Shown one piece after another: positions 6,610-64,000 of a DNA stretch of 64,000 nucleotides; within the stretch, counting starts at the first letter, position 1; every line of letters begins with the position of its first letter. Position numbers and translations under genes: made by a program. The stretch comes from a virus (lineage: Duplodnaviria > Caudoviricetes): positions 1-64,000 of IMG/VR virus record IMGVR_UViG_3300031993_000048. The stretch is one strand, 5' to 3'. Under the pieces are notes generated by a model. The model did no database searches. It worked only from the letters and a program-made list of their open reading frames with translations, and was not told where the DNA came from.

Positions 6610-6653
6610 TGTCTGTTCCTTTCCGGTTGTTGGTGAAGCCTCCGCACCCGCGG

Positions 6654-6750
6654 GGACCTCGGAAATCGAAAGCACCTTACGGGTGCCAGTCGGCCCTTTC
6701 CACAGCTCGGTTCACGTGGGCGGCTGTGCTGCATCGGGCGACAGGTCCTG
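6654..6750 (-). ncRNA. Candidate structured leader RNA, copy A (multibranch, closed by GGACCU/AGGUCC)
   Basis: Nested stems found by eye; shares CAGGACCYGUCGCC...AGGUCC with 7183-7277. Confidence 0.4.
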
Positions 6751-7182: not shown

Positions 7183-7277
7183 GGACCTGAACGTCTGCGA
7201 GCTGGACTGTCGGCTCGTAGGGCCGATGTGCTCTGTCAGACGTCGTCGCCTGGCCAAGGCCGCGGCGACGGGTCCTG
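7183..7277 (-). ncRNA. Candidate structured leader RNA, copy B
   Basis: GGACC/GGUCC, CGUCGCC/GGCGACG and ACGUCUG/CAGACGU stems. Confidence 0.4.
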
Positions 7278-7458
7278 ACGACGCCGGGGGCACCGTACGC
7301 TAATCAGTGCATAGTTCCTCCTTGGTCGAGGTGAAATAGCTCCCGGCGCACCCCCGATGGGGCTCTCGGTCGCCGGGCAACCGCGGACAGTTATTTGTCT
7401 CATGGGCTCATGAAGTCTCGAACGAACGTCGAGCCCAAGTCCTCCCTCGTCGCCGAAA

Positions 7459-7786
7459 TGGTCGCCCCGGCGGGGATCGAACCCGCACGCGACCGCCTAC
7501 TTTCGGGCGCACCGTCGGGGCACGCGTACTCCGAATCTCACGGAGCGGAACGGTACAACTCGCGCACCTGCCGCATGCTTTCCCCCTTCGCCGGGTCAAT
7601 GGCGAGGCAAAAATCTCCGGGAGAGACCGGAGCCAAACGCCCTCGCTCGCCGACGCGGTACTCGACATGCCGAATCGCTACATCTCCCGCCCTACCCGAC
7701 CGTGCCGCCTGTTGGGCATCGGCATTTGTTGCGCACGGCTCGCACGCTTCGGCGGAAGCTCAACCCGACGCTTAAAAGGCGGGGCA
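7459..7786 (-). ncRNA. tRNA-like structured RNA (T-arm, acceptor 3' strand and CCA); 5' end uncertain (7786 or 7522)
   Basis: Minus strand 7486-7459 reads GCGGG-TTCGATC-CCCGC-CGGGGCG-A-CCA; complementary TGCCCCG at 7786-7780 and 7522-7516; no canonical D or anticodon arm. Confidence 0.6.
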
Positions 7787-7878
7787 AGTCTTCCGTTTTC
7801 CTTCACGGGACGTAAAATCGCAAATGCAGAGAACCGTCTCTTCGACGCGCCGCCGGTCTCCGCTTCCGGCTGTTGGCG

Positions 7879-7896
7879 CGAATCAGGAAAAAAGTG
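7879..7896 (-). promoter_or_regulatory. Conserved motif ACTTTTTTCCTGATTCG, copy 1 (candidate phage-specific promoter)
   Basis: Identical 17-mer at 8235-8251 (minus) and 9263-9279 (plus). Confidence 0.55.
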
Positions 7897-8017
7897 GGGG
7901 GCGGGAAGAGAAGTCGAGCGCGAAGGAGCTTCGACGTCCTCCCGCACCGGTTCCTCGAGGCTTTGAAACGGGCATGCGCGAGCCTGAAGGAAGAGAGACC
8001 CCGCCTACACGGCAGGG

Positions 8018-8197
8018 TCAGTCCACGCGGCGGTACGCCCGCCACGCCTTCAGCGCCTCCTCGAACGTCATGTTCAGCGAGTGCTTGCGGTACTCGCGCC
8101 ATACGTGCAGGGCGGCCTGCCGGGACGAATAGGCCCAGCGATACTCGCTGCGCAGATGCGTCTCGATGCGATAGAAGCTCTTCTTCGCCTTCTCCAT
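8018..8197 (-). CDS. Small basic protein, 59 aa (MEKAKKSFYR...), first gene of the left arm
   Basis: GGAGG upstream of ATG 8197. Confidence 0.7.
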   Translation of the reverse strand: MEKAKKSFYRIETHLRSEYRWAYSSRQAALHVWREYRKHSLNMTFEEALKAWRAYRRVD

Positions 8198-8234: not shown

Positions 8235-8252
8235 CGAATCAGGAAAAAAGTG
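8235..8252 (-). promoter_or_regulatory. Conserved motif ACTTTTTTCCTGATTCG, copy 2
   Basis: About 40 nt upstream of the 8197 start. Confidence 0.55.
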
Positions 8253-8339
8253 CGGGAAGGGCGGAGACGACCAGTTCCCCGGATCGTCGTAGCGGTGTAG
8301 CGGCGCTTCGTCGGGTCGGGTCTTCGTCGCTTCGACGTA

Positions 8340-8424
8340 TCGTCGAATCGGTTCTCCGGCTCTTCGGGGATGCGGCGATTCGGTTCTCCGGCTCTTCGGG
8401 GAGAGGGCGATTCGTCGAATCGGT
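8340..8424. repeat. Direct repeats: TCGGTTCTCCGGCTCTTCGGGGA x2 (8348-8370, 8380-8402) bracketed by TCGTCGAATCGGT x2
   Basis: Read directly from sequence. Confidence 0.85.
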
Positions 8425-8552: not shown

Positions 8553-8644
8553 TGTAGTATGGTTTCCAAAAATATTGGTGGGCTAAAAATCAAAAATCGA
8601 CTTTTCATTTTTTCTCTTACAATTTTTTTGGAAACCATACTACA
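8553..8644. repeat. Perfect 20-bp inverted repeat (TGTAGTATGGTTTCCAAAAA) with 52-bp AT-rich spacer
   Basis: 8553-8572 is the exact reverse complement of 8625-8644. Confidence 0.9.
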
Positions 8645-9262: not shown

Positions 9263-9279
9263 ACTTTTTTCCTGATTCG
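9263..9279 (+). promoter_or_regulatory. Conserved motif ACTTTTTTCCTGATTCG, copy 3 (inverted, faces the SSB-like gene)
   Basis: About 85 nt upstream of ATG 9363. Confidence 0.55.
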
Positions 9280-18991: not shown

Positions 18992-19116
18992 AGTGGATGT
19001 TCGCAGTCGTCGCGCTGGCCCTGCTGGCCGGCTGCGCGTCGAGGCACGAGCTGCCGAGCGGGGACCGGTTCCCGGAACCCGACCGGTGGTGGCTGGCTGG
19101 AGGAAACGGAGAATGA
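18988..19116 (+). CDS. 42-aa lipoprotein (spanin-like candidate) MKWMFAVVALALLAG-CASRH...
   Basis: Lipobox LAGC; ATGA coupling. Confidence 0.7.
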   Translation: MKWMFAVVALALLAGCASRHELPSGDRFPEPDRWWLAGGNGE

Positions 19117-19808
19117 ACAAGTACGAGAAGCTGTTCTTCCCCGGCGCCCTGAAGACGCCGGAGAAGCTGAAGTCCAGGGCGTTCTGCGCGGCGAAGAACT
19201 TCGAGCCGCCGAAGGAGCTCATACTGTCGGGGTACTGCGTGCCCGTCGACAACCAGGGGCAGACCCCGTGGTGCGCCGCGTACAGCGCGGCCAACTACGC
19301 GGAGAACATCCTCTGGCGCAAGCGGGGCTACCACTCCGAGATCGACCCGGAGCCGCTGTACAGGTACGCCAAGTCGATCGACGGCGACCCGCACGGCGAC
19401 GGGACGTACCTGGAGTGCACGCTCGAGGCGCTCGTCAAGTACGGGCACTTCGACGGGACCCTGTGCAAGATCAGGACGTTCGGCGGGCCCGGGTTCGGGC
19501 GCGACGCCGCGTCCGCGCTCCTGGACGTCAAGTACGCCGTCCACAAGTACGGCATCTGCATGGCCGGGTTCAACGTCTCCTCCGAGTGGTTCCGCCCGAA
19601 GAACGGCGTCATCACCGGCGCGACGAAGGACAGCGAGGGCGGCCACGCCGTCCTCATCTGCGGGTACGACGAGGGCGGCGTCCTCGTGCAGAACAGCTGG
19701 GGCAAGGACTACGGCCACGGCGGGTTCGTGTACGTTTCCAACAAGGCGTTCGCCGACCAGTTCATATACGGCGCGATCCTCACGCGGTCGCTCGACGGGT
19801 TCAACTGA
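19113..19808 (+). CDS. Papain-like cysteine peptidase (family C1-like), 231 aa
   Basis: DNQGQTPWCAAY (oxyanion Q, catalytic C), GGHAVLICGYD (H), QNSWGKDYGHGGF (N). Confidence 0.9.
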   Translation: MNKYEKLFFPGALKTPEKLKSRAFCAAKNFEPPKELILSGYCVPVDNQGQTPWCAAYSAANYAENILWRKRGYHSEIDPEPLYRYAKSIDGDPHGDGTYLECTLEALVKYGHFDGTLCKIRTFGGPGFGRDAASALLDVKYAVHKYGICMAGFNVSSEWFRPKNGVITGATKDSEGGHAVLICGYDEGGVLVQNSWGKDYGHGGFVYVSNKAFADQFIYGAILTRSLDGFN

Positions 19809-26068: not shown

Positions 26069-29000
26069 ATGGGGGTCCACGTCAGTCCAGTGGCGGCGGA
26101 TGACGCCGGATGTTTTGCGGCGCTGCGCCAGGTAAGCCGCGCGCAGACGGCATGGGGCCACCCCGGGAGCGACAACGGCCCGTCCGTCTGGACGACTACG
26201 TGGGCGGTGGACGCCAACGCGGCCGACGGGTGGTACCTCGACTACATAGACGTACAGGTGGTGACGCGCTGTACGATGTGGAACAGCCAGTACTACGGGG
26301 GCAGTCCCCGTCCCGCGGACCGCGTGACGTCGTTCAGGCTCGCGGCGGGCGGCACGTTCGTGACGAAGACGTCCACGGAAACTTGCGCCATAGCGTTGTC
26401 CGACAGCGGCTACCATGGCGACCACCATACGTACGTGCAGGAGGTCTTGTCGGTCGTCGCGCACTTTTCCACGTCGCCGACGCCGGAGACCGGGACGTCC
26501 AAATGGGGCTCGGAGGGCGGCGGGATAGACCCGGGCGCGGGCGACGAGGTGTCCGGCACGGCCAAGGACCCGTGGACCGCGTCCGCCGACGGGGGCGGCA
26601 GCCAGACGGAGAGCGTGCCCGACCCTTCGTGGATTCAGGTAAACGTGTCGGCCTCCCCCTCGGGGATGGGTGTTGTCGCCGGCGGAGGGCTGCGCCAAGG
26701 TCGTGTCGGCGAGATGGCCACGTTCGGTCTGTCCGCGAAGCCCCTCGATCCCCTGAAGTTCAGGTTCGTCAAATGGACGCGTAATGGGGCGACCGTCGGG
26801 ACTGACGAGAACATCTTTCCGCAGTTCCGCTATCAGGCGGGCACGACGGCGGCCAGCCCGACCACATACAATTACACGGCGGTGTTCGAGCAGATCGCGC
26901 CGTCCGTGAGCGTCAAGGCGGAGATGTCTCCGTCCGTGTCCTACTGGCGGGTGTCCCCGTCCGACCGCGAGCGCCGGTACAAGAACGGCGACAACACGGT
27001 CGAGGACTTCCAGGTGTTCGCGTGGGCGCAGGGCGAGGAACCGTCCGACCCCACGGAGCAGTACCGGTTCGACCACTGGGAGATAACGAGCGGGAGCGAG
27101 TACGCCACGATCAGCGACCCGAACAACCCGACGGCGATAGTGCGCGTCGAGTACGGGCCGGGCGGGACCGACAGGGACGTGACCGTGCAGGCCGTCCTCC
27201 TGTCGAACAAGCCGTACGTCGTGCAGATCTCCGCCGTCGCCGGGAACCCGGCGATGGGCGACGTCTCCGGCGGGCTCTACAGGATCGACGCAGTCGAGGG
27301 CGTCAAGTACTGCACGCAGCTTTCCGCGACCCCGAAGGCCGGGTACCGGTTCACCGGATGGTCGAGCGACAAGGGCGGGTCCGCACCGTCCGCGAGCTTC
27401 AACGCGTGCCTGACGTGCAGCTCCGACGAGAACCAGAACTCGGTCACGTGGACGGCGCACTTCGAGCCCGACCCGGACGCCCCGATCATCCCGGAGTTCA
27501 CCGGCTCCGTCGGGGGCGGCGGGAGCGGGAGCGAGAGCGGGTCCGGCGAGCCGCCCCCCGAGTGGTCGGGCACGACGGAGCGCTCCGCGGTCCGCGTGAC
27601 CGTGACATGCGACGAGACGAAGGGCACCGCCACGGTCGGCGGGGGCGCGTCGGACCTGCGCACCGGCTACGTCGGCCAGACGCGCACGCTCTCGCTCGAG
27701 GCGAAGCCGAAGGCGGCGTCCGGCTCCCCGGCGTGTCCGCTCTACAAGTTCGCCGGATGGTACGAGAACGGGACGCTCCTGTCCGAGGACGCGGTCCACT
27801 TCATCGAGCACGTCCTCCAGCCCGGCTACTCCGAGGAGTCCCCGGAGGAGCGGACGATCGAGGCGAGGTTCGAGCTCGCGGGCCCCGTCATCCATCTCGT
27901 CGCAAGCGTGTCGCCGGACGCCGGCGAGTGGTCCGTCTCCCCGTCGGAGAAGTGGTTCGCGAAGACGGGCGACTGCAAGGACAGGACGAACGAGGCCGAG
28001 CTGCTCGTCGCGTCCATGAACGCGGGCGCGTCGATCTACAAGTTCGACCGCTGGTCCGTCTCCGGCGCGGGCGCGTCCCTGACGGGGACGACGAACCCCG
28101 CGACCACCGTGTCGATGCAGTACCCCGAGGGCACGGAGATACGCACGGTCGAAGTCACCGCCGTCCTCAAGGAGAAGCGCAAGGTCTGCGTCACCTTCAA
28201 GGCGTCGGCGGGGGCCGGCGGCTCCGTGTCCGGCGGAGGGAAGGAGTGCGGGCGGGAGGGCGACCGGATATGCTCCCCGAATCCGCTCGTCGCGACGCCG
28301 GACGAAGGGTACAGGTTCGTCGGGTGGACGGGCCCGTCGCCCTCGGACGACGACTCGTTCACGCCGTGCGTGCTCGCGTCCGCCGCGGGCGTGCCCGGCG
28401 ACGGGGACGTCGAGATCGAGAGGACGTGGACGGCGAACTTCGAGGCGCTGCCGGAGACCTCGTCCGGCGGCGAGTCCGAAGGCGGCTCCGGGGGCGGCTC
28501 CGGCGGAACTCCCCCGCCCGGATCGGAGGGCGGCTCCGAAGGCGGTTCCGGCGAAGGATCGGGCACGTCCGGCTCCGGCGGGGAGACGACCGGAGAGGAA
28601 TACGTCTACATCGAGATCACGGCGAAGATCGCCGACGACAGCCCGTGCGGCGGCGCCGTGTCGAACGCCGGCGGGTCCTGGTACCTCCTGCGCGGCGACG
28701 AGGTGTACTTCGTCTCCGAGGCGTTCCCGGAGGCCGGGTGCACGGTCGTGGAGTGGGTGGACAACGACGGCGTCGTGCGCTCCACGGGCCCGCGCGTCGA
28801 GATCACGGTGCCCGCCGACAGGGACAGGGAGATCACGCTCACCGCGATCCTCGCGTCCTCGACCGAGCCGGAGACCTCGACGGCCGACCAGACGGAGTCG
28901 GGCGGAGAGTCCTACGTCGAGTTCAAGACGGAGACGACCGGGCCCGGCAAGGGGGCGACGTCGCCTTCGTGGGACAGGAAGCGCGGGGAGCCTGGCACCG

Positions 29001-29260
29001 ACGTGACGTTCACGACTACCGCGTACCCGAACCCCGGGAGCAAGTTCCAGGAGTGGAGGGACGAGGGCGGGAACGTCATATCGCAGGAGCCCACGCTCAC
29101 GGTGTCCGTCACCGTCGCGGACGAGCCGCAGACGGTGACGTACACGGCGGTCATGGCGATAGTCGGCCCGCTCCTGTACGGGGACGACGGGTCGCTCCTG
29201 TACGGCGCGGGATGCGCCGGACCCGTGTACGCCGACAAGGTGGTGAAGATGGACGGTTGA
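26069..29260 (+). CDS. Adhesin or decoration-like protein, 1063 aa, with ~8 divergent InlB-B-like beta-grasp repeats
   Basis: Repeated G-x-V-S-G-G ... A-x-P-x-x-G-Y-x-F-x-x-W ... x-T-A-x-F units. Confidence 0.75.
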   Translation: MGVHVSPVAADDAGCFAALRQVSRAQTAWGHPGSDNGPSVWTTTWAVDANAADGWYLDYIDVQVVTRCTMWNSQYYGGSPRPADRVTSFRLAAGGTFVTKTSTETCAIALSDSGYHGDHHTYVQEVLSVVAHFSTSPTPETGTSKWGSEGGGIDPGAGDEVSGTAKDPWTASADGGGSQTESVPDPSWIQVNVSASPSGMGVVAGGGLRQGRVGEMATFGLSAKPLDPLKFRFVKWTRNGATVGTDENIFPQFRYQAGTTAASPTTYNYTAVFEQIAPSVSVKAEMSPSVSYWRVSPSDRERRYKNGDNTVEDFQVFAWAQGEEPSDPTEQYRFDHWEITSGSEYATISDPNNPTAIVRVEYGPGGTDRDVTVQAVLLSNKPYVVQISAVAGNPAMGDVSGGLYRIDAVEGVKYCTQLSATPKAGYRFTGWSSDKGGSAPSASFNACLTCSSDENQNSVTWTAHFEPDPDAPIIPEFTGSVGGGGSGSESGSGEPPPEWSGTTERSAVRVTVTCDETKGTATVGGGASDLRTGYVGQTRTLSLEAKPKAASGSPACPLYKFAGWYENGTLLSEDAVHFIEHVLQPGYSEESPEERTIEARFELAGPVIHLVASVSPDAGEWSVSPSEKWFAKTGDCKDRTNEAELLVASMNAGASIYKFDRWSVSGAGASLTGTTNPATTVSMQYPEGTEIRTVEVTAVLKEKRKVCVTFKASAGAGGSVSGGGKECGREGDRICSPNPLVATPDEGYRFVGWTGPSPSDDDSFTPCVLASAAGVPGDGDVEIERTWTANFEALPETSSGGESEGGSGGGSGGTPPPGSEGGSEGGSGEGSGTSGSGGETTGEEYVYIEITAKIADDSPCGGAVSNAGGSWYLLRGDEVYFVSEAFPEAGCTVVEWVDNDGVVRSTGPRVEITVPADRDREITLTAILASSTEPETSTADQTESGGESYVEFKTETTGPGKGATSPSWDRKRGEPGTDVTFTTTAYPNPGSKFQEWRDEGGNVISQEPTLTVSVTVADEPQTVTYTAVMAIVGPLLYGDDGSLLYGAGCAGPVYADKVVKMDG

Positions 29261-62400: not shown

Positions 62401-64000
62401 GGCGCGTCCTCGACACCATGGCGAGCTGGTCGAAGATCTCGTCCGTCGGCTTCTCCGCGTTCTTCCAGATCGCGACCGCCTTCGAGTCCCCGACCGCCGC
62501 CGTCGGGTTCCTCCGCGCCCTCGCGGGCCAGGCCGAGTGGATCGGCAAGGCCGTCAGGAAGGCGACCGGCTCCGACGAGGTGTTCACCCGCGACCTCGTC
62601 CGGCTCCTCAACTCCAACGACCCGTTCGTGACGGAGGCGAGGGAGCTGTGCGACCTCGTCGGCATGCCGCTCGACCCGGCGCTCGACTTCACGAACGACC
62701 CGAACGACTCGAACCCCGTCCTCGGCCACGCGCAGGGCGTGAAGAGGCAGGTCGAGCAGGTCTCCGCGTTCGCGGAGCGCGCGCTCGGCAGGCGCGGCGG
62801 CAAGGCCGTCCGCAAGGCCCTCGAGTTCGGCTACCGCCACCCGACGGACTACACGTTCAACGTCGTCCTCAACGGCGTCAAGATGGCGGTCGTCATGCAG
62901 ACGGTCCGCCGCCTGCGCGAGGAGTGCCTGAAGGGCGGGCGCCCGTTCGACCTCGTGAAGGAGATGCGCAAGTACGGCGGCTACGTCAACGCCGAGATCG
63001 GCGGCATCGACCCCGCGCGCTACGCGTGGGCGACGCCCGGCATGCGCAAGCTCCTGTCGCTCGGCATGTTCTCGTGGCAGTGGACGGTCGGCGCGTGGAG
63101 CGCGGGCGGGGGCGAGGCGATCTCCGACCTCATATTCGGCGGGCACTCGTCCACGAAGGCGCTCCGCCGCCACGCGCTCCTGCGCTGGATCAGGATGTTC
63201 GGCATCGTGAAGTTCGGCGTGCCCGCCGTCCTCCAGGCCGGGATCAAGGTCCTCTCGATGCTGGGCCTCAAGGCGCTTCCGCCGGACCCCGACGACCCCG
63301 AGGACGGCCTCGAGCAGGAGGTCGACGAGATGCCGTGGTGGACGTTCAACAACGAGTCGAAGGCCGGCATGCTCGCGTTCGACGTGACCCCGCTCCTGAA
63401 GCTCGCGGCCCGCGTGCCGGGCATGAAGGAGATGAAGCGCGCGGACGTCCCGTACCTCTCGTGGGCGATCCCGGCGTACGTCGGCGGCGGGCGCAACACC
63501 ACCGGCAAGCGGCACTACTACATGCACTTCGGCAAGCAGTCGGACGAGTTCTGGCGCTGGTTCGAGAACCCGCTCGGGCAGTTCGTGTCGAAGCTCTCGA
63601 TCCCGCTCCAGAAGGGGCTCGAGGGATTCTTCGGAAGGCTCTCCCCGAACGGCTTCTCCAAGGGCTTCGCCGACAAGACGATGGTCGACCGGTGGTTCAC
63701 GCTGTCGCTCGATCCCGACCAGTCGGCGCTCGCGAACTTCGTCCTCTCGCACTTCATGTCGTTCTCCGTGGAGGGCATGAAGGCGAACGCGGACGCCGGG
63801 TTCCTCGCCGCCGTGGGTCCGATGCGCATGGGGCAGTCGAAGCGCTCGACGATGCTCCGCATCGAGGACCGGCTCCAGCGCTTCGTCGAGGACGACCGCA
63901 CGGGCAACCCGTGGAGCAGCAGGAAGAACCGCCGCAAGTTCAACCTCATGTGCACGGACATCCTGCGCGAGGCGCAGCTGAACGGCGTGGACGTGACGAC
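44478..64000 (+). CDS. Giant virion polyprotein (>6,500 aa, 3' partial) with two-barrel RNA polymerase and zincin metallopeptidase motifs
   Basis: AAGGAG 9 nt before ATG (MPRNPFADPF...); the track lists no stop-terminated ORF in this frame, and in-register antisense ORFs (44397..49997, 50622..63752) agree; HRSP at 54855-54866, GSDMDGD at 54990-55010, HEYYH at 58638-58652. Confidence 0.85.
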   Translation, partial: MPRNPFADPFTNPADAGESLFGRDGAMAPAMPRLVPAADEIADSSLSISSAPDPLAPRLDDDDDEPDVPQFQSPYKGQDLLSEPMDKEKGPTAFQRKEINWSDGGEDLTRPRRRNVAPSDWLEVDYLFGKKEGASGKPVEAANVFGRQFTRDELERDEDGRKLLGLMEFRRSGKVNEGGALANFGKGFSDWGTSDIPFYGWFADIGTTVGDAIEMSRTIRKLQDGGEVTPREAIRLRTHMLRQELESQRTMAHQVGSTVRSSVTLGAEILASSAIGAGIGAMFGGVGAPVGAAVGALFAPIRWLFGIGGTAAKAGARKVVNVGMKQLTAKMARDLTAAELKTIVRTGAATYGEEGVRSLLREGVKKGLRGRELYHSLAGELQYATRMSDPGRMAARALFSADYRLALEGGLRAAVEQKALAKTLVNATKDDIARLSVRERARLVNEGIRKMVANNEWKPFVQDFAKGVMVGDRTAAVDFVRKGVQEATGRTLVAPQYAQRILDIAASSVAKDMELAAGKLAFANPVRFFRYFGEHAARGLVQSEHGLFGGAPTIAHSGFTTFARGKDALKEGIGRVFIEAPIQGALQFVGGPLALSPIFAAASGYSPTDLTVKGQLGYQIDALIRGDREKMDTARQAALGSAFVEYASEAAGRGLGAMFGGAVATAVGKSPSAVAEGAKAMVTPVSRRIGSALDRAVKAVYGEGDLLKNGVEGFTGQASRALRGLTGRSGVKASVARAVQNRTIDGFDDATKTALARKGVKDWKGFQKFVAASAADGNRMRAGLNYFGLKLMERGMTPDRVVQFFRQAGYSGILEEMGEERVGDFMRGLFGFDDTASDATWKDKLRSMFSGITDFDQLATEFIAFAIPGAIRRGTISAQSWLANGAVGQARAAAQGLRYMTDLGRGKVYAAVGGVTQEDKERIERRPAESAAMRDGVLGTTKDNRSRMSANAAAMAANAAGIEQAVRDAGGLSEQGSSPDERAAYEAMLAPVLSAQGEGQMRAAMDELADEYLAAGDEATLERTMEQTGATAIFGEDGVDAIRREWRKGAGHEFSADSEIEASLADWKAFDAQSPTVSRREPGSVGEAVDDMCAQIAGMDRNASVTAGEEDRANGERDAMVADENARDVAVEDAMTLARYLGRGAVNSSREMSFGRRVMSRIVGMLGAASTGDLSLAATSPAAWLAQDEGVDKNLQMALLQCYSAGLMSGWAKMSAGQSEALRQAVGSVETAEELRQKLDALRRERRISDDIFDQLEEAGEETFRARVTEFMTAYMTASGVALVTRQDAVDMARSIVAKRHEKAGEAFERDEAWFAREDIAREVEAARSDVIDGVIATARNSLGYTTHRGAGDYGTYMTVDVAQAMKNGTSAEVLAAILDSPAFRGVARVQNVSGLSEHEREMAMSLLTSDVADLGAIAAIETEGEGNADRELTERELAEVNAAMRANPSDYTPEAFQNLARTFVRRVKLARENMRSTFSRLDDAGNRIVATIAPAAGGFAVVETDESTGATTRTEVAGSREDVEAQLASQGFALEEQRLVISQVKTFASSDATSLLFLRSGQDREAVRDIFKDSAGEIEDENVLPPWCRKERREPGGPLVWKYSDDQSDLAAEEFRRELALADEYERNGDSWMYYLAGTGASAKDRRARMAEAKKMHERVYGVSVEGASPTSGYESRARLELERLGIRRSSSVGTDLQQIGMPSDAYVMPVDAVNAKDVVVLTPDYFALGHGEALLRHGVRHALNAYVAGAGEEAELRNALLVEAYREFRGCIDDIVAEAETARGGRAEAKRLRAAYDELFPARADGLPSTLDLAKIASSSLFFSCDRGNYEDGNGFLHSAELSKAADRFRSTDIFMFFMSAVDEALGGKGLFDPARSSAGGLARYRAAFAPDFVKLREARKSAVFGGQSGEMKNPFVRGFRLRDGLTADEVRSGAGKWVVPDAAIGLKEPTSDRLRARDFDGKIGGYWGLYASSGQRFAQAYGSLTGERDAVLSSARAFEMARRSDLCGGETAGGTETRARMSDTVAPLAKRELRRLSETLSVADISPASLESAGQAMRSIATSLMAGAKDKARTEAALVREFEGWLLGRGVSKAIAAEMVAAFERATVRPIAKKTDEEAKNEEADAQNAETEEIENRESTNDPDNERRVGQFINDQNIMAVSGFLKFIMPAECGDSAPTFLRLRADLSRPEMYGELAGERASWKEDVDAFVRMLGVNSDLRNIDRALASNLVNLSSREDTDRMLDRVATLLWENGRRDYALAVAAIRNVDPANGERSKMLERLSQATAVTPMRLDRTGPAKPFGIDFIGSGARADVVPGVVASGYTSLSETVLKGMFKADGSLAKDAGAALAKVVAYVRSDSFASKRLAPILGTPVKVGFVHVTFDKALYETLEAVANGKGATTLAEYTDAVLAVADIIRARSAAAADVLDGILGAGSQYAHMLRSPYVLSEVVRVALSAYNMKRGTSYGRNLREAAVMKLVRLANYLVADPSQRGKVSWQTSVQRCSGIVEDLVVEPVEGLLLRLGVNPASTTLEADLAKALEGKDADWVRDTLRQMAKDKLATDMHLDCGANPAEAIRKRDKAGDKPWTGLNNAPTFVPGAYRSASNLDVLVEAYLAGAPRSSATLGGRAASAIEGAKNKSVQTLPSMLPGFVRFANSVLCQASGVTDELAGNGNRWRDRSNPIVSFVGAKDSGGRLLRRESVAGALRSAIDAENSDPEYVPTHVLVPFFRADKPACYALRIPVGTMRAMIEAAVGNEEVVRQLPADLAAVVEEVAKTKGEDLKGKEYVAYKKKFHQAAYALAASALGQSQIDPKRVPVLSSCGPLISTYVDRGEGTDPRAGCYFVSMVGGSTGASMMGGYITAGVLPSRVSGMGEGSWSQAQKLHMFSVKRGVNFKKGQASAIGLGFYADGRSDDRSRTNGEIVSNHAVRFAQRQGRRQLEALLSQEFKDAGLSGQNLLDPVPALEDGATDEQKAEHAELERIHDKAVDVANAFLANATIAVDDLETNKAGLFGSSCGVKVEKGATKIEVGGVTVAELADGKWRSSVPGFEFDFDGEGVKNGRALVMPVLAALAAKQGGRVDAAGIEGTWVRPDGSEFTGKLGDSGLLSEGETLACEIDKETGAARVVFFTRDMYGQVVASNANSSKASDHHVFPTNATRDHWMMEAITNATTPGGRNGSRRFIDAHAGYSLLRLATLAHNGELMRREMRRDQELVALLKAHPNDNQVRDAISDRARAFLEKQTLVGYYGNHGIMVPSGGKLVSGDEFAHTVEIEWAPGTTDYDRGCYKPATVYTREEAEAFGASRSWASGSVNADVEGFRYGLYFDEAALDSLLSQVAPDEQALARFARAGVDAAVAGRMARLAAFMEDLGGPLESQEQRTKRDALLACAYDYTGKKASENVRAKDIRFDDLFVRSWDGTTSFDYAAVDHEGRVSLHDGAKHLYLGGSVFHAHRSPSGNIAAACGTVRATCPYSFFPDGRIGRESKYALDPVTTATQGSDMDGDSASLQFYDYGAEDLVDAPAMRRFTDAVLGGADPFDVAKEMKWTVVQDGMEVVDPRVLRAVSRLVFSAQANNYREAATFHQGYTSVTALAGRKATGADFAVHYRENPPADGVFADYGFAGRHPVGTDAVFSEPFGAETLARFETLAGRKVLGRLSAEFKAKWFVEGKKMNKVLEAIVDEIRGKPKNSLLKMGEAADASDAASDSAKARGISVASQSTILRAIVTDLFGTGDRMTYDEAKGYSAVIDLIAHIDGVSNNLFDTLKKMFATRAGWTTSMLPFFLGRLAVDAREEAGRGGPVDSAFVLAEAAKFLEELTRVDGKIHTSATVAGRLASLLDPVRRDVAAARLAELYNGEQKDKGATVMTQYRGRPKTADEIINDFCRKRLEGEAYSMTRDAKAVYAAAYMTDAAHPVDESDYAVYDLVASSMDDSKALCRAVDYMKVAGKGLADVGRYALKAEGEETDETIARDPALRLQDLVVKGFSSQVANWLDSTENLQLVLDGQLGRRPWDFAAGSALRDNADRFVHLIGAVRGVDPALVRAIATKTTTEQVPQGGKVADRTVETASTETLLRRIATTVAVYGDLAATGRAKVPAIARLLSSIRVGDNGVSLSLSSRETSADIETLRAGFDLLAGQGGAKGYRIYERNEAGEAADTGLRVSGAELAKLLVLHASLTGTFGAAQDYVTQSNLPAVFGDARLRFLERCRHEILDTAEIASALGLAPVDVARTSAYDLFGDVEVIRTIGREQARDVELPYLREELAAAKKADDASRTRTVLRRGKAVKKGLEDGEEAFQSFRTYPALSVLRGAAGLTRYGAEVNNALEARLGPHDLYRRWMSDDPFAELTQDVPGPETVASAEIGFPVEEKSPRVDASAVDTSWADPLETRTAFRRPGETEDAYVFPRPALSEDGSRVVFSTDDMVDSLEKAYNGLLDALIDDSKSNEARAERKRLYNELNPTKKILTRRPDLVASDLADILSEAARRDADVYDALDKIGDRLAVHPDPRIAAAIDIANSRLGAEGRNGIARPSAPATRASFMGGATRARVEADPRSAFADRAERVAPGFTSQQMMSAKTAVVGAFEKAFDGAEVTEVQGKDGAETNLLKVTRRIANGRQIVTYVAIGSRMGDTLGMEAAADSIAALLNARNGGSLTGEAVIRAFGAANVARLADIMRRTGAQTGESDTTSLDFAPFMSGVIRLSDRADFTTLFHEYYHQMVAVYRKLGILDPDTERRLNEDFGGEEGAAEMFGRYLSGVEAGADDVELRDFMGADGLTDAHLRLFADFRRRAADIARGMFRGMDADGAAHFVALRIVQGEVTEEEALRIAEPSAADVENLERQLQGLESRPRLDVLTDEQMADAMSIREAALAALASGDAGAIRAAGLRTLAFFQKKTPSAPVSRTTDSEARDEERGERAEDVDISRVSGFIRRALLRYERDGMGEDFAESMRLYREFPVVGDAASGPNAALFYTVRSFIAHVAEAENISIYREDGSLTPAGEKLMSSETVGELAMRFVNNATQERRSQDRRQGVEWASSAWAFSRALESVAPGTYERYCALLARKSAEAFRRLGESLLARPGKTQDDIDAANEFIAKSGEIENFVRHVARGEDVRSLLPFDVESGGNLHGLFLAYFTGGARFQRDEEGEYLYPKGPVRPYSRELDHTSRLETGDPALDPLVDLAYNYAAQAFSVAEAARSYRRQVLGEGKDGEAADEERPEGVGETAGPASISSEEVSESTKGLEEALPPDAPLDVNASPAATAPSDFFAKVDTTLTTPEWILANPGKWLESDMQRNLSGASMRDMMTDHAVKAATERHYRLAMDWVQFFGMDTHVGDGVRKVEIVESRLGRNAQGDFSVSEGNAHSVMRFSQTRGALFGAFAWQEKRVGEALTTDDIRELHAVGRLVKLIANRQSADLLGIEIGHLAVPGAVEMLRRDDYADFLSRGRLLERVADSGYRLNALEDLLRRIVDDVPKSVLDAGFYDAVVGALRKAALRSGPGGAELPPEAVNENMLRALERAGVVHRSKGTGRAVVCVSAKRMLDAWNASDAKRKLRDAGRPEKMLNPYYWADRFARAAKDLNNVAAKSTYLTLGEGSRFTLAGTSRFWWHGGTGSHKFQVDAYQNAIRAFEGMSPSSVDVLRAKQSELFEIIEASRDPSVLRRQAFSKKGVSRLSDRELRYLAYLMGLTTRGDETRFDAAGFARDIAAGRYETFDRDLKVPCTIRRDATVLDIRLQIAELVSRKTFSENLSALTAEERQDYLNAQTAADELRETLSRDVPGRVTARSEMEEFDRTGRLGDSRTAAESLIEMCKELTTAERFRGCLAQMLAAVSADGTPSFVVAPTEAAVGVDRMPDEYWGALARHVARFLGRKIPTIGYDEGLSGAENMRRIHRQLSEGDQKLYGKMSASKYGGGRLFQGDILCRLDDRDAAGNVDEATRALGGEAACYMKQLLSALRAPTQSAAWRVLDTMASWSKISSVGFSAFFQIATAFESPTAAVGFLRALAGQAEWIGKAVRKATGSDEVFTRDLVRLLNSNDPFVTEARELCDLVGMPLDPALDFTNDPNDSNPVLGHAQGVKRQVEQVSAFAERALGRRGGKAVRKALEFGYRHPTDYTFNVVLNGVKMAVVMQTVRRLREECLKGGRPFDLVKEMRKYGGYVNAEIGGIDPARYAWATPGMRKLLSLGMFSWQWTVGAWSAGGGEAISDLIFGGHSSTKALRRHALLRWIRMFGIVKFGVPAVLQAGIKVLSMLGLKALPPDPDDPEDGLEQEVDEMPWWTFNNESKAGMLAFDVTPLLKLAARVPGMKEMKRADVPYLSWAIPAYVGGGRNTTGKRHYYMHFGKQSDEFWRWFENPLGQFVSKLSIPLQKGLEGFFGRLSPNGFSKGFADKTMVDRWFTLSLDPDQSALANFVLSHFMSFSVEGMKANADAGFLAAVGPMRMGQSKRSTMLRIEDRLQRFVEDDRTGNPWSSRKNRRKFNLMCTDILREAQLNGVDVT

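Follow-up and report, generated by a model that had tools for sequence, protein, structure and literature searches.

A phage RNA gene with a leucine-type tRNA frame, a giant variable arm and no conserved anticodon

We analysed the first 64 kb of the 77.6-kb virus record IMGVR_UViG_3300031993_000048 (IMG/VR), a cattle-rumen phage sequence about 81% complete and about 69% G+C; this 64,000-nt stretch is referred to as the window. The subject here is an RNA gene on its minus strand, running from 7812 to 7459 (354 nt, from C1 to an encoded CCA). The gene lies at the inner end of a leftward gene arm, adjoining a spacer of about 2 kb, less G+C-rich, between two divergent gene arms. It stands alone in the early region, outside any tRNA cluster, and its downstream neighbour encodes a protein of 117 amino acids (aa) without known family that has many homologues. 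A first-pass annotation, made from the sequence alone, had proposed a discrete, novel, tRNA-mimicking RNA with a CCA end at this locus. This proposal holds, for an RNA of about 350 nt, whereas most of the fold proposed with it does not. The RNA is conserved and structured; it has the frame of a tRNA-Leu and a giant variable arm, and it lacks a conserved anticodon.

Relatives were found by comparing, as DNA, the contigs that carry homologues of the 117-aa protein, from which a conserved-block pattern and finally an nhmmer profile were built. The DNA comparison revealed that 7827-7457 is kept at 74-79% identity in other phage contigs. The pattern led to two further IMG/VR contigs (about 95 kb) and 15 metagenome contigs, and a corrected pattern scan recovered no IMG/VR contigs beyond those two. 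The profile added the distant members L035, L036 and L033 and the partial member L038, beside more distant 117-aa genes. Altogether the family holds 19 distinct full-length sequences of 339-354 nt, 59-99.7% identical to the window copy, all of which begin at the acceptor 5' strand and end at CCA. The homology of the 18 other members starts and stops at the ends of the window gene, and profile positions 1-342 align to 7812-7459. The 5' end, earlier placed at 7786, therefore has to be moved 26 nt further upstream to 7812, where homology begins with CGTCCCG, a strand that covaries with the 3' strand. In L011 and L012 the conserved stretch sits at the opposite side of the 117-aa gene; this swap of position, together with homology that ends at CCA, shows that the element is a discrete unit.

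The terminal parts of the RNA fold as a tRNA. The acceptor stem pairs CGUCCCG (7812-7806) with CGGGGCG (7469-7463), with double-sided changes in five of its seven pairs and 99.2% of alignment cells paired; the discriminator A73 and CCA, which complete the 3' segment (7469-7459), are invariant in 19/19 sequences. Pair 3:70 is C-G in nine sequences, U-A in nine and U-G, with U on the 5' side, in one. Pair 4:69 is C-G, U-A or G-C and pair 6:67 is C-G or U-A, while in L033 pairs 1:72 and 2:71 are inverted to give GCCGCCG/CGGCGGC. The 3' end had been read correctly in the first-pass annotation, as a 5-bp T-stem GCGGG/CCCGC with the loop TTCGATC, followed by CGGGGCG, A and CCA (7486-7459, minus strand). 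Across the family this T-arm (GCGGG, UUCGAUC, CCCGC; 7486-7470) has an invariant stem and invariant U54, C56 and A58; U55 is replaced by C in L036 only, and U48, directly 5' of the T-stem, is invariant. A D-arm, by contrast, had been declared missing but is present: U8 and G9 precede a 3-bp stem AAG/CUU with a G13-A22 mismatch and the loop GAAAACGGAAGA (7805-7786 with U8 and G9, the arm itself 7803-7786). Pair 11:24 of the stem swaps from A-U (6 sequences) to U-A (13), and the loop positions A14, A15, G18, G19 and A20a (GG then AAGA) are invariant. The heptamer TGCCCCG, proposed as the acceptor partner, does occur twice, but neither copy has that role: 7786-7780 runs from the final D-stem base through position 26 into the next hairpin, and 7522-7516 supplies the 3' strand to two long-range helices that covary. 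When the big arm was deleted in silico, ARAGORN accepted a full-length cloverleaf in 11/19 members. The frame is a complete class-II, leucine-type tRNA layout whose set of elbow nucleotides is intact.

Compared with its closest described counterpart, class-II tRNA-Leu (RF00005; for example phage T4 tRNA-Leu, L044 4457-4371), the RNA shares the 7-bp acceptor, A73 and CCA; U8, G9 and a 3-bp D-stem with unpaired 13:22; a D-loop with A14, A15, GG and AGA; U48 before a 5-bp T-stem with a UUCGAnC loop; and an extra arm placed between anticodon stem and T-stem. It differs in that the extra arm is 16 nt as read in T4 but a branched domain of about 277 nt here, in an anticodon stem of 6 bp plus a bulge with an unconserved loop, and in receiving no score from the Rfam tRNA model.

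Hairpin A (7784-7764), which directly follows position 26, occupies the place of the anticodon arm. The first-pass annotation had listed a normal anticodon arm as lacking; the arm-like hairpin here has 6 bp with a 2-nt bulge and a 7-nt loop (CUUUUAA) that is not conserved. The stem covaries, pair 31:50 being C-G in 12 sequences and G-C in seven. The loop is CUUUUAA in the window, CUUCUAA in L026, CUACAAA in three divergent clades, CUCAAGA in L036 and AUUUGAA in L033, and in the L016 clade it is a GACA (GNRA) tetraloop. At the anticodon position these loops present UUU (window), UCU (L026), ACA (the three clades), CAA (L036) and UUG (L033). A leucine anticodon (CAA) is found in L036 only, the window has UUU, and the stem is not of 5 bp. 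Because the loop varies between clades and the stem is irregular, a role as a conserved decoder is excluded.

Between hairpin A and the T-arm lies a branched domain of about 277 nt (7763-7487), starting 4 nt past hairpin A and ending 2 nt (GU) short of the T-stem, with 13 helices inside, most of which show compensatory changes. It is closed by a basal stem with 5' strand GC..CCGCC (7759-7751) and partner 7497-7489. This stem was misaligned by MAFFT and was read instead from per-sequence cofolds, which give the same topology. Its first pair is G-C, C-G, A-U or U-A depending on the clade, and its variants include GUCGCC/GGCGGC, CUCC/GGAG, AUCC/GGAU, UUCC/GGAA and UCGUCCC/GGGACGA. Duplex energies of cognate and non-cognate strands (-10.5 vs -8.2 kcal/mol) differ by a small gap and were not used as a test. 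From the position of the basal stem and the closure it provides, the domain is a true, hugely expanded variable arm, the expansion being roughly 17-fold.

Inside the arm, helix H6b pairs GCCGUGCG (7739-7732) with 7517-7511; its pair 80:327 is C-G in 13 sequences and A-U in six, and pair 79:328 is U-A in L033. Hairpin C (7723-7699) has a bulged A, the conserved loop YAACAGGY and double-sided changes in 7/8 pairs, and hairpin F (7546-7528; GCUCCG/CGGAGU) has a conserved 7-nt loop UGAGAYU, is 100% paired and changes from C-G to A-U at pair 294:306. The distal stalk (7697-7562) stacks helices H8 to H16, with columns 121-152 and 259-322 paired at 97-100% and many double changes. Besides H6b and hairpins C and F, strongly supported helices are H8 (7697-7694 with 7521-7518), H9-10 (7692-7687 with 7553-7547) and the long H12 stack (7678-7666 with 7577-7562); the window clade bears an additional terminal hairpin on the stalk (7632-7615). 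The arm also includes a T-loop-like hairpin and several invariant purine-rich junctions.

The fold model was obtained with RNAalifold on the 19-sequence alignment and has 92 pairs in 18 helices; it was tested by sliding pairing partners by 1-3 columns and by 500 shuffles. In the model 93.2% of cells are paired, compared with 37-44% when partners are slid. Double-sided changes fall on 46/92 pairs (8-17 pairs when slid), so that covariation across related phages, suggested earlier as a check, is present. The covariation score is 0.343 against 0.06-0.07 for slid partners, and no shuffle (0/500) matched the model on any measure. The two mutually exclusive folds of the first-pass annotation, including a 64-nt mini-tRNA, find no support. 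The helix CGTCGGG/CCCGACG fails in relatives: CGTCGGG is the 3' strand of hairpin A, and CCCGACG takes part in other covarying helices. The proposed ATGCCGA/TCGGCAT pseudoknot likewise fails in relatives, its strands pairing elsewhere in covarying helices, and the bases of the supposed variable-arm-like hairpin belong to other such helices.

Standard detectors miss this gene. Rfam 15 at gathering thresholds gave no match across the whole window. At E<=10 over 7200-8100, the single match within the RNA was tmRNA_permuted on the T-arm, at 11.8 bits (gathering 47), and the other match was a snoRNA model outside the RNA on the plus strand. RF00005 gave no match at gathering score or at E<=10. An ARAGORN tmRNA search made no call in default or intron mode, and at E<=10 neither the window nor L033 nor L036 matched a ribozyme family, whether group I, group II or another. 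The earlier view that the RNA is not a canonical tmRNA and has no group I core is thus borne out by Rfam and ARAGORN, which found neither a tmRNA nor an intron core. ARAGORN did make two tRNA calls at the locus, both of which we reject. In default mode it reported an 89-nt tRNA-Val(GAC) at 7547-7459, whose 'acceptor' is the 5' strand of hairpin F, locally paired and covarying. In intron mode it reported a tRNA-Pro(CGG) from 7880 with a 329-nt intron, whose 5' half is unconserved beyond near-identical relatives and whose acceptor pairs at 5/7 positions. No second complement of the 3' 18 nt, as a primer-binding site would be, occurs within the window. With ARAGORN miscalling the locus and Rfam silent, such genes are invisible in phage annotation.

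The family carriers are ruminant-gut phage contigs, of about 80-100 kb where complete or near-complete, and the sequencing runs with the stretch are bovine gut metagenomes, with sheep and goat gut runs listed at small shares. Searching a phage GenBank collection by blastn gave no match, and a literature search found no paper describing the family. Exact searches with the 3' end were negative both for viral contigs and for prokaryotic genomes (185,579 species, one genome per species), so a host tRNA, prophage copy or att partner was not found; the record encodes no integrase or serine recombinase.

The leucine-type character of the frame can be set against published recognition data. According to PMC9976931, bacterial leucine identity consists of A73, A15-U48, G18G19, A20a and D/T-loop contacts, A14 is a further element named for E. 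coli, and recognition by leucyl-tRNA synthetase (LeuRS) needs neither the arm of the anticodon nor the long variable one, which are dispensable. The identity positions given in that text are all fixed in the 19 sequences, save U55, which is C in L036. We consider it probable, at roughly 0.6, that the RNA is a non-decoding carrier built on a class-II leucine-tRNA frame, matured by host tRNA enzymes, with the big arm as its working module. It would be transcribed within the early left-arm unit, cut by host RNase P at C1 and trimmed at its 3' end back to CCA. Host LeuRS probably binds the RNA and possibly leucylates it, because all known bacterial identity elements are kept and neither anticodon nor variable arm is needed. 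The tRNA frame would provide maturation, stability and an address to tRNA-binding machinery, and the arm would do the work, most likely through a protein or RNA partner that it binds, without any reading of codons. More tentatively, the RNA may belong, among the largest members, to an undescribed class of phage effectors on a leucine-tRNA frame that are charged or captured by LeuRS, the arm being a ribozyme or docking platform that acts on the translation machinery or on tRNA-directed immunity.

Several observations weigh against the carrier interpretation. In G001, a complete relative of 100 kb, the 117-aa gene is present and the RNA is not, so the RNA is dispensable in this phage group. No partner protein was identified; genes for SmpB, a reverse transcriptase, Ro60 and a CCA-adding enzyme are absent from the record, and none of the genes next to the RNA matches a Pfam or PHROG family. 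The identity set is the published bacterial one, and the LeuRS rules of the host may differ. The leucine-type positions could also be inherited and kept for folding rather than for LeuRS. Furthermore, the single-sequence minimum free energy (MFE) is no better than that of dinucleotide shuffles (z +0.69 for 7786-7459, +0.41 for 7880-7459), so the evidence for structure is comparative, not thermodynamic.

A somewhat unlikely alternative is that the RNA is a decoy, mimicking a host tRNA to divert or trap tRNA-directed immune enzymes such as anticodon nucleases or CCA-end-modifying enzymes, with a loop that tracks the nucleases of different hosts. The first-pass annotation had suggested a decoy for anticodon nucleases or synthetases, with which the changing loop is compatible without being proof. 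The anticodon-type loop of 7 nt with U33 in most members, varying by clade while the rest of the frame is fixed, would suit such a role, as would the accessory nature of the gene, absent from G001 and shifting in position relative to the 117-aa gene in a manner typical of arms-race genes. However, a GNRA tetraloop stands in for the loop in one clade, bacteria do not normally use ACA as an anticodon, the stem carries an extra pair as well as a bulge, and no defence or anti-defence gene was identified nearby. A stoichiometric enzyme decoy also requires tight binding, and the conserved 277-nt arm would be left unexplained. The arm is the starting point of another proposal, which we judge improbable: that the domain is a variable-loop intron, self-splicing or removed by enzymes, leaving a tRNA of some 80 nt as the functional product. 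Group I introns are frequent in phages, in-silico excision yields tRNAs acceptable to ARAGORN in 11/19 members, and an invariant G two bases 5' of the T-stem could be a terminal G. Yet three divergent members match no group I, group II or ribozyme family at E<=10, there is no conserved U at a 5' splice site, and an all-against-all pair scan detected no second covarying partner for an exon strand. The domain is instead closed by its own basal stem in the fashion of a variable arm, the would-be tRNAs have inconsistent or no anticodons and an irregular anticodon stem, and L038 has the domain without the tRNA 3' half. Known bacterial tRNA introns, moreover, sit in the anticodon loop.

The size, CCA end and T-arm sequence, with the weak 11.8-bit tmRNA_permuted match on the T-arm, recall a ribosome-rescue RNA with a charged tRNA-like domain and a message-like domain, and LeuRS, as AlaRS, disregards the anticodon according to the review on leucine identity. 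A divergent tmRNA-like RNA is nevertheless very improbable. Pair 3:70 is never G-U and no tag frame is conserved, as the first-pass annotation had said of the lack of G3:U70 and of a stop-terminated tag, and the RNA has a real D-stem and an anticodon-like arm. Stop triplets are conserved in 19/19 sequences at columns 8, 138 and 297 only, all of them within the tRNA core or in structured positions, and the would-be codons are altered by compensatory changes. The ARAGORN tmRNA search was negative and the phage has no SmpB, although the host would supply it. As for a degraded tRNA, an attP remnant or a chance tRNA-like sequence, which the first-pass annotation had kept in view, the artefactual ARAGORN calls and the unremarkable single-sequence stability would fit, but conservation of 354 nt with 46 compensatory pairs rules this reading out. 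The absence of an integrase or serine recombinase from the record, and of an exact match to the 3' end in one genome each of 185,579 prokaryotic species, points the same way.

Non-decoding phage RNAs of tRNA type have precedents. T4 RNAC and RNAD, the next closest described RNAs after class-II tRNA-Leu, are the species 1 and 2 stable RNAs of 139 and 119 nt; they are encoded in the tRNA region and have no known role (PMC3014915, PMC9697503). They share with the present family that they are phage-encoded and tRNA-like, and rnaC has a T-arm-type motif GGTTCGAATCC, but they are one third the size and lie in a tRNA region, whereas the gene described here stands by itself. The family profile matched nothing in the T4 tRNA region (L044; nhmmer --max, E<=100). 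tmRNA (SsrA) is also a large RNA whose ends form an acceptor and T-arm with CCA, and an anticodon-blind synthetase could charge either; the present RNA differs in having neither G3-U70 nor tag frame, in its D-stem and anticodon-like arm, and in a closed stem at the variable-arm position. Engineered tRNA scaffolds, mascRNA/MALAT1 and the tRNA-miRNA hybrids of gammaherpesvirus 68 use a tRNA frame for the precise processing and stability of an RNA module, with the cargo in the anticodon stem or after the tRNA. Here, in contrast, the variable arm is the cargo, carried by a frame that keeps a synthetase identity set and CCA. For fifty years no function has been assigned to non-decoding, tRNA-like phage RNAs such as RNAC and RNAD of T4, and the family is an extreme and well-defined case. 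Its fixed fold makes questions about charging, the partner of the arm and help against tRNA-targeting defences testable, and a natural tRNA frame carrying a large RNA module is of interest to RNA engineers.

Upstream of the RNA, at a distance of 67 nt, lies a copy of the 16-nt repeated motif CTTTTTTCCTGATTCG (7894-7879), confirming the earlier report of a motif copy there. The motif has three exact copies in the window against 0 expected, at 7879-7894 (-), 8235-8250 (-) and 9264-9279 (+), each oriented into a transcription unit, and outside the window phage it occurs only in the two relatives closest to it. It may serve as a phage-specific promoter or operator of the unit in which the RNA lies. 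A small leader hairpin follows it upstream of the RNA. In the L013 clade the stop codon of the upstream open reading frame falls in RNA nt 8-10, which means that a longer transcript must be made and the RNA freed from it, as happens with tRNAs. Past the CCA come a conserved hairpin in the leader of the next gene (7437-7403; kept in most relatives, z -1.98) and the ribosome-binding site of that gene. A 63-nt block at 7330-7392 (-) matches L013 2692-2754 at 100% and L014 at 92% identity, although the flanks diverge; it folds into a G+C-rich hairpin (z -0.29) within the 117-aa gene's leader. Contigs from bovine RNA libraries (four runs, three studies) contain pieces with 80-100% similarity to the window, all of them within 7466-7583 and 7676-7809; these come from contigs of relatives, may be DNA carry-over and show neither transcription nor ends, and no joints were seen.

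Variants of the locus were seen in three relatives. In G001 (L002 2699-2757), at the same position upstream of the 117-aa gene, a 7-bp stem resembling an acceptor is joined by a GGUUCGAGUCC T-arm and a small hairpin; this minihelix ends A-UCC rather than ACCA and has an MFE of -31.1 kcal/mol (z -1.5). L038 (7240-7600) retains the big arm together with a 5' part resembling a D-arm, but the T-arm and the 3' half of the acceptor are gone; in their place its 3' end has a terminator-like hairpin CCCGUGCCGACGGG followed by AUUU; judged from this sequence, the big arm can stand alone. L033 has a normal tRNA-Arg(CCU) gene (6621-6697) about 740 nt downstream of its copy of the giant RNA.

In the spacer beside the RNA gene, 8301-8420 and 8553-8644 contain five direct repeats with a 16-nt period and a 46-nt near-perfect palindrome in an A+T-rich patch, making the spacer a candidate origin or regulatory region. 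The large proteins of the phage are essentially without Pfam or PHROG families. From 44433 to the end of the window at 64000, and on to 65612 in the full record, runs one open frame that takes up about 27% of the record (7,059 codons), with a G+C fraction at third codon positions of 0.97 and a weak match to DUF6861 as its sole Pfam match. Nearly all other Pfam matches in the phage are accounted for by a papain-type cysteine protease domain at 18993-19808 (+) and by InlB B-repeat (Flg_new_2) repeats in a protein of 1,063 aa encoded at 26069-29260 (+).

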